A DNA stretch of 64,000 nucleotides from Bradymonadia bacterium (GCA_046290225.1 JBKAGE010000042.1:32001-96000); one strand, 5' to 3'; shown: positions 59,821 to 61,936, counted from the first letter of the stretch. Numbers and translations: made by a program. Notes: generated from the sequence alone by a model not told the origin.

Positions 59821-59961
59821 CGGGAGCGGCCCGACATAGGGATTTCGTTACCTTAGGACCGTTATATTTACAGTTGCTCTTACTGAGGCCAATCTCAGCA
59901 GTGGGCGCGAAGGGCCTTCGAGACCCATCTCACTCCTCCCTCGCCCACATGGCCGCTCCCG
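59821..59961 (-). ncRNA. Putative ~141-nt structured RNA containing a 23S rRNA H69-H71-like segment
   Basis: 11-bp closing stem CGGGAGCGGCC/GGCCGCTCCCG; internal hairpins; 59877-59830 matches the conserved 23S domain IV sequence. Confidence 0.65.
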
Positions 59962-59971
59962 AAAGATATGG

Positions 59972-60009
59972 GTGCCCCTGGAGGGAATCGAACCCTCGTC
60001 TCCACAGTG
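59972..60009 (-). pseudogene. 3' half of a tRNA-Glu-like gene, truncated at the anticodon loop
   Basis: CACTGTGGAGACGAGGGTTCGATTCCCTCCAGGGGCAC resembles the 3' half of the array tRNA-Glu genes; abuts the repeat. Confidence 0.65.
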
Positions 60010-60333
60010 TTTTTCAGAGCCTGCCCTTCGGGCGCTTCTTCGCTCCTACGCCCTGTCGGGCTCCGTCGACTCCGAAGCGTCTGGCCACAGGCCAGACAGG
60101 CTCGCTCGCAGCATTTTTTCAGAGCCTGCCCTTCGGGCGCTTCTTCGCTCCTACGCCCTGTCGGGCTCCGTCGACTCCGAAGCGTCTGGCCACAGGCCAG
60201 ACAGGCTCGCTCGCTTACGCTCGCTGTTCTCTCTCAGCGTTGTTTGAGAGCCCACTCTTCACAGCCTCCGTCGTCTCTGAGGCATCTGGTTTCAGAGCAA
60301 ACAAGCTTTCTCGTTTGTACTCGCTGCTCTCTC
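60005..60333. repeat. tRNA-associated structured repeat, three tandem units
   Basis: Two units identical over ~100 bp (period 105) plus one degenerate unit; junctions start CAG(T/C). Confidence 0.85.
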
Positions 60334-60365
60334 AGCATTTCTGGCTGGATCACTCCAGACCTCAA

Positions 60366-60441
60366 TGGATCCCCCGGCTGGATTCGAACCAGCATCTTCG
60401 CGTTCAGAGCGCGACATCCCCAACCGTTGAACGACAGGGGA
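60366..60441 (-). tRNA. tRNA-Gln(CTG)
   Basis: TCCCCTG/CGGGGGA acceptor, TCGCG-CTCTGAA-CGCGA, encoded CCA. Confidence 0.88.
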
Positions 60442-60453
60442 TCAGATGTAATT

Positions 60454-60531
60454 TGGCGTCCCTGGCGGGATTTGAACCCGCGCTTCCACAGTGAAAATGT
60501 GGCGTCCTGAGCCTGACTAAACGACAGGGAC
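60454..60531 (-). tRNA. tRNA-Glu(TTC)
   Basis: GTCCCTG/CAGGGAC, CCACA-TTTTCAC-TGTGG, encoded CCA. Confidence 0.88.
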
Positions 60532-60569
60532 ACGAGCCGCTCTGTGAGCGGCGAATTTCTTTATTTTTG

Positions 60570-60641
60570 CGGCCCATACCGGAATCGAACCGGTCCACAA
60601 CCGATAGACAGTCGGTCAGCACCCCTTGCGCTCGATGAGCC
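60570..60641 (-). tRNA. tRNA-Asp(GTC), atypical
   Basis: GGCTCAT/ATGGGCC+G73, ACCGA-CTGTCTA-TCGGT, T-arm ACCGG-TTCGATT-CCGGT; C8 and U37. Confidence 0.8.
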
Positions 60642-60651
60642 ATCATCTAAG

Positions 60652-60723
60652 ATCCCCCGGTAGGACTCGAACCTACATCACCGTGGTCAAAGCACGGGGT
60701 CCTGACCATTGAACGACAGGGGA
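60652..60723 (-). tRNA. tRNA-Gln(TTG)
   Basis: TCCCCTG/CGGGGGA, CCGTG-CTTTGAC-CACGG. Confidence 0.88.
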
Positions 60724-60797
60724 TCAACCACCCCAACCAGAGCCCACCTGCGACACGGCGCCGGGGAGCTCCGGAGGTTTCGGGAGTGGACCAAAAG

Positions 60798-60870
60798 TGC
60801 TCGGGGACGGACTCGAACCGCCGACGCGCTGATCTTCAATCAACCGCTCTACCAACTGAGCTACCCGAGC
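60798..60870 (-). tRNA. tRNA-Phe(GAA)
   Basis: GCTCGGG/CCCGAGC+A, GTTGA-TTGAAGA-TCAGC, canonical D- and T-arms. Confidence 0.9.
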
Positions 60871-60945
60871 AAAGTCACCATCAACACTCGACCTCAAAAC
60901 GAGAGTGGCGCCCCCATCATGGGGTCGAGTGTCGATGTCTATATG

Positions 60946-61019
60946 CGTCCCTGGCGGGATTTGAACCCGCGTCTCCACACTGAGAACGTGGCATCCTTGG
61001 CCAGCTAGACGACAGGGAC
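60946..61019 (-). tRNA. tRNA-Glu(CTC)
   Basis: GTCCCTG/CAGGGAC+G, CCACG-TTCTCAG-TGTGG. Confidence 0.88.
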
Positions 61020-61266
61020 AGTGTTTTTAGGGAGCCTGCCCTTCGGGCGCTTCTCCGCTCCTCCGGTTGGCATTCGCCACCCTCCGTCGGCTCCGAAGCG
61101 TCCGGCCACAGGCCGGACAGGCTCGCGGGCTGACGCCCGCTATTTTCTCTCGGGGTTTCTAGGAAAACCTGCCTTTAGGGTGCTCCTACACCCCTACAGC
61201 TTCGCCTTTGTCGACTCCGAAACATCTGGCTACAGGCCAAAAAGGCTCGCCCGCAGATCTCTCTCA
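61019..61266. repeat. tRNA-associated structured repeat, dimer
   Basis: Same intact plus degenerate arrangement and TCTCT(C/T)GGGGTTTCT linker as 7797-8030. Confidence 0.8.
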
Positions 61267-61429
61267 ACCTTTCTCAAAAACGCCCCCTTCAAGTACCTCT
61301 CCATCCGTATCCGCAAACCCCAGCCAGCAACCACGAAAGGCCGGGGGCCGCGGAGCTCCGGAGGTTTTGGGAGTGGGTGGCTGGCCGGCGAGGCGCCCGC
61401 TCCCAAAGCCGGAGGAGCGGAGCAAAAAG

Positions 61430-61501
61430 CGGCCCATACCGGAATCGAACCGGTCCGCAACCGATAGACAGTCGGTCAGCACCCCTTGCGCTCGATGAGC
61501 C
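61430..61501 (-). tRNA. tRNA-Asp(GTC), atypical (1 nt different from the 60570 copy)
   Basis: Same cloverleaf as 60570-60641. Confidence 0.8.
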
Positions 61502-61677
61502 ATACAGCATTGCACATTAGATACACCCCGAGTGTATCGACACACGCCTTGGGTGAGTCGGCCTCATATCAAACCACTCATACCGGAGCGGCATCAGATA
61601 CACATCGGGTGTATACACACCTGTCGCACGTCAGGCATGGTCATACGCCAAAACTGGAAACGGAGAGTGCAGAAAGC

Positions 61678-61715
61678 AAAAACGCCCACCGCTCCAGGTT
61701 GTGGAGGGGTGGGCG
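61678..61715 (-). terminator. Attenuator terminator upstream of the tRNA array
   Basis: CGCCCACCCCTCCA-CAACC-TGGAGCGGTGGGCG-TTTTT, 27 nt after the leader stop. Confidence 0.8.
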
Positions 61716-61742
61716 CCGGGCCTAACCGTAAAGAATCAACGG

Positions 61743-61841
61743 TTACGCGAGGTTCCCCCCCTCGATATCCTGCTCAAAGCGCTCTTGTTCCTGCTGGAAC
61801 AGGGCGCATTCGAGCACATCGGTATCGAAAAAGCAGAACAT
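61743..61841 (-). CDS. Putative leader (attenuator) peptide rich in Phe/Asp/Glu/Gln
   Basis: GAGG RBS; MFCFFDTDVLECALFQQEQERFEQDIEGGNLA; 17 of 31 codons are read by the downstream tRNAs. Confidence 0.75.
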   Translation of the reverse strand: MFCFFDTDVLECALFQQEQERFEQDIEGGNLA

Positions 61842-61907
61842 GGTGGCCTCAAATCAATCGGGTGTTGGAAGGCGCTCAAGAAGTGATGAGCGCCGTTGAC
61901 GTGACAA

Positions 61908-61936
61908 TCAATACTGGTGACTGTTCAGCGTGTCAA
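61908..61936 (-). promoter_or_regulatory. Sigma70-like promoter of the tRNA array
   Basis: Perfect TTGACA, N17, then an imperfect -10 TATTGA. Confidence 0.55.

Follow-up and report, generated by a model that had tools for sequence, protein, structure and literature searches.

What controls the array of seven tRNA genes on the minus strand of a 64,000-nucleotide stretch of Bradymonadia bacterium DNA (GCA_046290225.1 JBKAGE010000042.1:32001-96000; hereafter the window, with the array's unit labeled C42 and the host genome G000)? Upstream of the tRNA genes lie a short open reading frame (ORF) and a terminator-like hairpin, and a preliminary description of the locus had read this arrangement as leader-peptide attenuation. 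From the sequence and from RNA folding, we regard it as probable that the unit is a ribosome-mediated transcription attenuator that governs an array of spare tRNAs. Covariation, recurrence, controls and structure, all of them computational, support that reading.

The elements named in that description (promoter, GAGG ribosome-binding site, 32-codon ORF, terminator and seven tRNA genes) are all present on the minus strand, as judged from the sequence and from ARAGORN. Our recount of the codons also agrees with its tally: 17 of the 31 codons after Met specify Phe (five; three TTC and two TTT), Asp (three, all GAT), Glu (five; two GAA and three GAG) or Gln (four; three CAG and one CAA), the amino acids served by the array, compared with a background of 0.196 calculated over 2711 long G000 ORFs (binomial p 1.4e-5).

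Other arrays of G000, each on another contig, likewise stand behind a TTGAC promoter with A-tracts, a Shine-Dalgarno sequence, a short ORF and a terminator. In C20, the leader MYVQNTIVNVRLKRRVKSVRRLRVIRVRREGGGTF devotes 20 of its 34 codons to Val, Arg, Lys and Ile and precedes four Arg, two Lys, two Val and one Ile tRNA genes (p 1.8e-6); in C37, the leader MHFISNTSNSRLSSLDLRLSYCASLLLSALEGSSS has 21 of 34 codons for Leu, Ser and Tyr (p 1.2e-6; all six Ser codons are present, and the Leu codons include neither CTA nor TTA) ahead of tRNA-Leu genes with anticodons CAG, GAG and CAA, four tRNA-Ser and two tRNA-Tyr genes. The C79 leader, a GTG-start ORF of 59 codons, has 24 of 58 for Ala, Gly and Thr before two Ala, two Gly and three Thr tRNA genes, and the C77 leader, MTALFHTDDHGRWWPMTRSGGAFSTC, contains a WW pair and is followed by a strong terminator and one tRNA-Trp gene. 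When scored for the amino acid sets of the other arrays, the C42, C20 and C37 leaders reach only 3-6 of 31-34 codons, and the C79 leader 9-14 of 58. A weaker leader near the opposite end of the window has many His, Pro, Met and Cys codons; Cys and Pro account for 10 of its 36 codons (p 2e-4), and 20 of the 36 belong to C, H, M, N, P and W, which the four multi-tRNA arrays do not serve (p 6e-8, for a set defined post hoc). The hairpins behind this leader are without a good U-tract, and it is followed by no tRNA gene for His, Met or Asn. Judging from sequence, G000 thus appears to hold at least five clear units and one weak one, and the six leaders, the weak one included, jointly cover all 20 amino acids. 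No leader was found at the C34 Pro array or at the C44 Asn/His pair. Sigma-54-like boxes (TGGCACG, 4 nt, CTGCT) occur ahead of leaderless spare arrays at G000 C34 ∼374575 and C44 ∼41110 and in another genome, G067 (L055 ∼500-516), which suggests a second, enhancer-dependent control route for spare tRNAs.

Among 41 relatives searched by BLAST, a homologue of the C42 leader was found only in G023, a genome of another genus in the same family (79% identity over 202 aligned bases). This leader, in unit C80, keeps the same 99-nt, 32-codon frame with no indel. The two ORFs differ at 20 positions, distributed 6/7/7 across the three codon positions, and because 13 of the 14 changed codons alter the amino acid (six become Arg), the peptide itself is not conserved. 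What changes along with the codons is the cargo. The G023 array reads Asp, Arg-GCG, Arg-CCG, Phe, Gln-TTG, Glu-TTC, and the seven Arg codons now in its leader are all CGC, CGT or CGG, which the two tRNA-Arg species can read; two of the three CAG codons are lost, and the array has no tRNA-Gln(CTG). Enrichment of the C80 leader for its own set is strong (p 2.1e-6), and its terminator stem retains pairing through two compensatory changes. None of the proteins encoded on either side of the C42 unit has a match in the 6-kb G023 locus, and since the flanking genes thus have no counterpart there, leader and array appear to travel together. Comparison of leader composition with tRNA content in homologous arrays, which the preliminary description had proposed, was therefore positive, with Arg gained and CAG lost in G023 and the other units matching their own arrays. 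In the same G023 unit, the D loop of a tRNA-Glu(CTC) gene (L002, minus strand, ∼1300-1040) is interrupted by ∼250 nt of inserted DNA that ends in inverted repeats and resembles a miniature transposable element. Three weak leader matches from BLAST over 28 family genomes (L004-L006) had no tRNA nearby and were set aside.

Two further G023 units have a four-gene Leu array behind a leader containing the run LLRLLLLL, where the Leu signal lies, and a three-gene Pro array behind a leader in which 4 of 28 codons are Pro. In G067, which belongs to another family and was picked by tRNA counts over 63 class genomes (limited to ∼65 scored candidates in each), a Ser/Leu/Tyr array follows a leader with 21 of 35 codons for those amino acids, and an Asn-Cys-Gly-Gly-Phe-Phe-Ala-Ala-Thr array follows two leaders in tandem with 40 of 53 and 52 of 70 codons for Asn, Cys, Gly, Phe, Ala and Thr. 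The order of ribosome-binding site, start codon and short ORF seen at C42 is shared by the C20, C37, C79 and C77 units, by three units of G023 and by these three of G067. The tandem leader-terminator units lie ∼1200 nt upstream of their array (L054, G067:C658). The design thus recurs beyond homologous sequence, as far as can be judged from sequence comparison, and the homologous module itself appears to be rare: a BLAST search of the order (31 genomes) with the C20 leader returned no homologue, and a covariance model (R1) built from the C42, G023, C79 and C20 modules and run over 113 class genomes matched 41 of them at E≤0.1, strongly only at its training loci in G000 and G023. Of 28 weaker R1 loci that were retrieved, 27 had no tRNA and one overlapped a single tRNA-Gly, and all were rejected. 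An exact 23-mer from the unusual Asp gene of the array, searched across the genome contigs of the collection, gave a single locus, that of G023, and matched no further species genome.

In a seven-by-seven matrix of leaders against arrays (C42, C20, C37, C79 and the three G023 units), the diagonal holds the top enrichment in every row, and when array labels were permuted, only 1 of 5040 arrangements, the true pairing itself, attained the observed sum. We relied on this test and on a scan of architecture because ranking upstream ORFs by composition alone, which placed the four arrays at ranks 1, 3, 5 and 9 among 49 tRNA loci, is confounded by Arg/Pro-rich spurious ORFs. The architecture scan ignored composition and asked, at the same 49 loci, for a hairpin of ≤-18 kcal/mol with a U-run behind it, placed upstream of a tRNA. 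Such hairpins (-18 to -28.5 kcal/mol) were found only at the C20, C37, C42, C77 and C79 units, the adjacent short ORF was the matched leader in four of the five (the C79 leader begins outside the scanned stretch), and none of the ordinary tRNA clusters had a leader-terminator unit. The C42 terminator hairpin, at -26.6 kcal/mol by itself, is surpassed by no terminator-like hairpin upstream of any tRNA locus except that of the C79 array. Within the leaders, own-set amino acids are written with rare synonymous codons twofold more often than expected (34 of 114 versus 16.2).

The 174-nt C42 leader is strongly folded (-85 kcal/mol, z = -6.7; none of 200 shuffles was equally stable). When the full length is folded, region 1, in the 5' part of the ORF, pairs with region 2, in its 3' part, and the spacer hairpin and terminator stand alone. 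To follow the effect of ribosome position in silico, transcripts of seven leaders were cut before the 3' arm of the terminator and the ribosome footprint was masked. In all seven, as long as the A site is within the first two thirds of the ORF, the terminator 5' arm pairs with the ORF tail, which bears GAGGGG or a comparable run of G-rich sequence, and this pairing is reduced or gone with the ribosome near the stop codon. For C42, 11 of the 16 nt of the 5' arm are paired upstream with the A site at codons 2-22, and fewer from codon 23. The tail-to-arm duplex was attained by 5-32 of 1000 shuffles per leader (C42, -22.1 kcal/mol, 32 of 1000). The antiterminator noted earlier, GAGGGGGGG with CCCACCCCTC around a small hairpin, is indeed the minimum-energy fold of the cut transcript and is lost with the ribosome near the stop. 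The C42, G023, C79 and C20 modules align as homologues, RNAalifold returns the spacer hairpin and terminator from the alignment, and 10 of the 30 predicted pairs, including some in both of these elements, are maintained through two-sided changes.

So stable a fold is also what one would expect if the short ORFs were untranslated and the leader were a structured RNA with a direct sensing role, recognizing for example tRNA, as a T-box does, or binding a protein, for which the palindromic repeats of the spacer could serve, with codon composition a by-product. We consider this very unlikely, given that no T-box or other Rfam family was detected on the leader at E≤1, that GGAG or GAGG stands 5-9 nt 5' of the start codon in the C20, C79, C77 and G023 leaders as well, that no indel disturbs either frame or length despite 20% divergence, and that the enrichment is confined to one reading frame and tracks the amino acids of the array in dissimilar sequences.

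We infer that the attenuator would operate as follows. Transcription would start from the TTGACA promoter and the 32-codon leader would be translated. A ribosome that reaches the stop codon would cover region 2 (GAGGGGGGG), the terminator would form and the array would be off; were no ribosome loaded, region 1 would hold region 2, with the same result. If a ribosome stalled within the first two thirds of the ORF, at a codon for Phe, Asp, Glu or Gln, region 1 would be masked, and region 2, now free, would pair with the terminator 5' arm, allowing RNA polymerase to continue into the tRNA genes. Most likely, then, the array is switched on when ribosomes read own-set codons slowly, a feedback loop in which low decoding capacity for a codon class would yield more of the tRNAs that read it. 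The anatomy, the match of codons to tRNAs, the covariation and the alternative pairings are seen in the sequences and folds; translation of the leader, operation of the switch and a purpose in backing up tRNA supply are readings of these data. As to the physiological trigger, tRNA cleavage, mis-modification or starvation can be put forward as pure conjecture.

Several observations weigh against attenuation of the tRNA genes. On composition alone, three units are weak (C79, p 8e-3; G023-Leu, p 0.066; G023-Pro, p 0.086), Arg/Pro-rich spurious ORFs of GC-rich DNA also score high, with an ordinary tRNA cluster at rank 2, and the lower regional G+C (0.58) may account for part of the rare-codon excess. 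The caveat raised in the preliminary description, that a long leader hairpin might shape codon choice, is real: the halves of the C42 ORF pair, and the complementarity of Phe TTC with Glu GAA adds to the Phe and Glu content, though such a constraint cannot explain the four other amino acid sets at other arrays. Truncated transcripts without a ribosome form the antiterminator too (seven of seven leaders), so that the "off" state depends on an assumed order of co-transcriptional folding in which region 1 pairs with region 2 first. The C80 terminator of G023 is followed by GUUCGUGC, a poor U-tract. Between 75 and 400 nt separate the terminators from the first tRNA gene, leaving room for a separate promoter; a consensus scan of 59800-62100 found none, though it also missed the leader's own promoter. 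A search of sequencing runs gave seven rows, with shares of just 0.05-0.06, and no usable RNA run among them. Lastly, extra tRNA would not obviously help under amino acid starvation.

The long spacers, the capacity of complementary hairpin arms to enrich codon pairs such as TTC/GAA, and the biased spurious ORFs of GC-rich DNA are equally what coincidence combined with hairpin constraints would need, the ORF and terminator then being all or the last part of an unrelated small transcription unit, with separate promoters in the spacers serving the arrays. Such a coincidence would have to extend to a leader-to-array match that no false pairing attains, to Arg codons gained in G023 together with two tRNA-Arg genes, to three more matched leaders in the other family and to the joint movement of leader and array between unrelated flanks, and we consider it the least likely of the explanations weighed here. 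Attenuation by the leader remains the reading that we prefer, and the features on which it rests are collected in Table 1.

Table 1. Features of the C42 unit and of the weaker leader, in window coordinates.
Feature	Position	Strand	Basis
A/T-rich tract GTGTTTTTTGAGAAAAAAAC, UP element-like, directly upstream of -35 box	61947-61966	minus	From sequence
Promoter-like site: TTGACA (61936-61931), 17-nt spacer, TATTGA (61913-61908)	61908-61936	minus	From sequence
GAGG ribosome-binding site, ATG 5 nt further	61847-61850	minus	From sequence
Leader ORF, 32 codons plus TAA, ATG at 61841, peptide MFCFFDTDVLECALFQQEQERFEQDIEGGNLA	61743-61841	minus	From sequence, codon counts
Region 1, 5' part of ORF, partner of region 2 in full-length fold	61821-61839	minus	Minimum-energy and centroid folds
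Region 2, ORF tail with GAGGGGGGG (61763-61755); partner is region 1 or terminator 5' arm	61753-61771	minus	Folding
Spacer hairpin TAACCGT/ACGGTTA, begins at stop codon, enclosed by predicted antiterminator	61723-61745	minus	Folds
Predicted intrinsic terminator: stem-loop (61717-61681), then GUUUUUGCUUUC	61672-61717	minus	Folding, compensatory pairs
170-nt spacer from terminator to first tRNA, two palindrome-bearing motif copies (61620-61591, 61546-61514)	61502-61671	minus	From sequence
tRNA-Asp(GTC)-like, non-canonical, first in array	61429-61501	minus	ARAGORN; Rfam model misses
tRNA-Glu(CTC)	60945-61019	minus	ARAGORN, Rfam
tRNA-Phe(GAA)	60797-60870	minus	ARAGORN, Rfam
tRNA-Gln(TTG)	60651-60723	minus	ARAGORN, Rfam
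tRNA-Asp(GTC)-like, second non-canonical copy	60569-60641	minus	ARAGORN; Rfam model misses
tRNA-Glu(TTC)	60454-60531	minus	ARAGORN, Rfam
tRNA-Gln(CTG), last intact array gene	60366-60441	minus	ARAGORN, Rfam
Glu-like tRNA 3' fragment behind two repeat elements, decayed array end	59969-60004	minus	Sequence, comparison with G023 tRNA-Glu
Weaker leader, GTG-start ORF MQFVAHHMCIPHPVMPGCPGHHPQVNCMLARPMPGQR, upstream of tRNA-Cys (6538-6609) and tRNA-Pro(GGG) (7723-7797)	6124-6237	plus	

The C42 promoter and terminator were assigned from sequence and folding. The consensus scan of promoters and terminators called neither of them, and since it misses the leader's own elements it is uninformative. The -10 box, TATTGA, has only three of six consensus matches; upstream of the TTGAC boxes in the C20, C37 and G023 leaders, A-tracts similar to that of C42 are also found. 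The direct repeats of the C42 spacer carry palindromes (GTGTATACAC...ATCTGATG), and the G023 spacer (L018 ∼1300-1540) contains ∼15 tandem copies of GGTGTGTGCCATC; such repeats might serve as a signal for processing, as an operator or as a promoter. The neighbors of the array, a GT2 glycosyltransferase, a GT87 glycosyltransferase and an imelysin gene, are ordinary chromosomal genes. An origin of the array in a mobile element or prophage was considered and rejected, as no integrase or phage gene adjoins it. Searches of the phage and plasmid collections gave 127 and 93 matching records, all of them through a single tRNA (≤6% of the query), with no match at the level of the array. At the weaker leader, an inosine-uridine nucleoside hydrolase gene (PF01156, E 5.5e-14; window 6651-7568, plus strand) lies between tRNA-Cys and a tRNA fragment.

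ARAGORN finds 96 tRNA genes in G000, including the further arrays on other contigs, which hold 1-10 genes and are grouped by amino acid. Identity between array tRNAs and non-array isoacceptors is just 57-84%, and that of the first array Asp gene to non-array tRNA-Asp 61-63%; by sequence, the array tRNAs appear to be a second, diverged set. Both Asp genes have C8, a 3-bp D stem and U37 and were missed by the Rfam tRNA model (E≤1), as was the tRNA-Cys gene of the weaker unit. Such divergence would also suit an attenuator that is real but makes something other than replacement decoding tRNA, with odd tRNAs produced on starvation for another purpose, for example as uncharged tRNA amplifying the stringent response, as decoys for tRNA-targeting enzymes or as a source of tRNA-derived fragments. 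By the logic of trp and his, an attenuator reads charged tRNA, so that starvation would open the arrays even though extra tRNA cannot then restore decoding, and non-canonical genes occur in several arrays. We nonetheless hold this to be unlikely: most array genes are good tRNAs (in C42, five of seven matched the Rfam model, at 54-64 bits), the cloverleaf of the odd Asp gene is preserved in the G023 copy through compensatory changes, and anticodons agree with leader codons at the level of the codon in 17/17, 19/20, 20/21 and 21/24 cases. Comparison of the anticodon loops of spare and ordinary tRNAs revealed no systematic pattern.

A structurally odd first tRNA gene stands behind several of the attenuators. 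Besides the Asp-like gene of C42 and the tRNA-Cys, a tRNA-Trp gene (G000 C77:152519-152589) has an unusual D arm, and the first gene of a G067 array (L059 ∼1145), called "???-gaag" by ARAGORN, has odd arms or loops; in the C20, C37 and C79 arrays the first gene looks normal, so that the oddness is not universal. Orphan tRNA 3' halves, consisting of the T arm and acceptor strand, lie in the window at the C42 array end and at ∼7610-7660 and are, from their sequence, probably decayed array members or remnants of recombination at tRNA genes. A repeat family of ∼90-106 nt (19 BLAST matches in G000) clusters beside spare tRNA genes in either orientation, with copies in the window at 61210-61256, 61035-61126, 60020-60214 and 7813-7897 and in G000 at C34:375240-375755; two tandem copies separate the last C42 tRNA gene from the 3' fragment. 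Three tRNA-like genes with inserts of 14-42 nt (G000 C34:374630-375660; called by ARAGORN -i as Pro-TGG, Pro-TGG and Leu-CAG with introns) precede spare Pro-TGG and Pro-CGG genes. The motif CCGACTGTCT is common to these inserts and is also found in the anticodon arm of the odd Asp gene. At G000 C37:77832-77917 lies an 86-nt paralogue of the array tRNA-Tyr with an altered anticodon loop, called Thr-TGT. The spare sets use tRNA-Arg(GCG) (G000 C20:480-555; L002 889-964), an anticodon that is unusual in bacteria for Arg, and among the non-array tRNAs of G000 only Arg(ACG) covers the codons that it reads.

How does the unit compare with systems already described? Leader-peptide attenuators of amino acid operons include trpL, hisL, leuL, thrL, pheL (PMC3082878) and the multivalent ilv leaders. 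The C42 unit shares with these a codon-rich short ORF, an intrinsic terminator, a competing antiterminator, pairing of region 1 with region 2 and a predicted read-out by ribosome position; like the ilv leaders, it would sense several amino acids at once, and elsewhere the WW pair of C77 resembles trpL and the Leu run of G023 resembles leuL. It differs in that tRNA genes are regulated rather than enzymes of biosynthesis or aminoacylation (the nearest same-strand protein gene beyond the array encodes a glycosyltransferase), in that a single leader probes as many as five amino acids, with the codon types of both isoacceptors, and in that several units partition the amino acids over a second tRNA set. 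With tRNA rather than enzymes as its output, the variant would be new. Related in logic is the Escherichia coli pheST attenuator (pheM leader), which has an aminoacyl-tRNA synthetase as its output, senses a single amino acid and includes no tRNA genes. As there, attenuation would act on the translation apparatus, and a shortage of charged tRNA would raise decoding capacity; unlike there, several amino acids would be sensed and tRNA would be the output. T-box riboswitches likewise sense the status of tRNA through competition between terminator and antiterminator, but they bind uncharged tRNA directly and need no translation, and cmscan of 58000-64000 against all of Rfam (E≤1) returned tRNA and weak sub-threshold matches to other families, with no T-box.

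The closest parallel in function is the trn operon ("L-array") of Anabaena sp. PCC 7120, a plasmid-borne set of 26 genes controlled by the repressor TrcR (PMC8421152, PMC10272220). It is likewise a second, normally silent tRNA set that comes on under translational stress; it is one long repressor-controlled array, whereas the arrays described here are short, sorted by amino acid and each provided with a cis-acting leader. The words leader, attenuat- and terminator do not occur in the text of PMC8421152, nor leader, attenuat- and stall- in that of PMC10272220. Phage tRNAs substitute for host tRNAs cut by defense nucleases (PMC10264068, PMC11555353) and share with the C42 array the idea that diverged spares could rescue decoding after damage to the ordinary tRNAs. 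Unlike them, C42-type arrays lie among chromosomal genes and have a putative sensing leader, a feature not known to have been described for phage tRNAs. A full-text literature search, judged by titles and the beginnings of abstracts, found no leader-peptide or attenuator control of tRNA genes, and within these sources control of redundant tRNA arrays is known only for Anabaena, by a repressor.

A broader proposal, which we advance tentatively as a possibility somewhat short of even, is that G000 has a complete modular system of backup decoding: at least six cis-acting sensors jointly covering all 20 amino acids, each freeing only the diverged spare tRNAs for the codons at which ribosomes stall, conferring immunity against tRNA-cleaving or -modifying toxins from competitors, phages or the cell's own defense systems, and carried between genomes as mobile leader-plus-array cassettes whose leader codons are rewritten with their cargo. 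The change of leader codons with cargo between G000 and G023, with Arg gained and Gln-CTG lost, offers a rare natural experiment on such a sensor. Units of this kind could also supply synthetic biology with compact, portable sensors of codon-specific translation stress. If leader-peptide attenuation does also gate tRNA genes, decoding capacity would be measured separately for each codon class and scarce tRNAs topped up; this would give "redundant" tRNA arrays a regulatory logic and link them to the role of tRNA as a target in microbial conflict.

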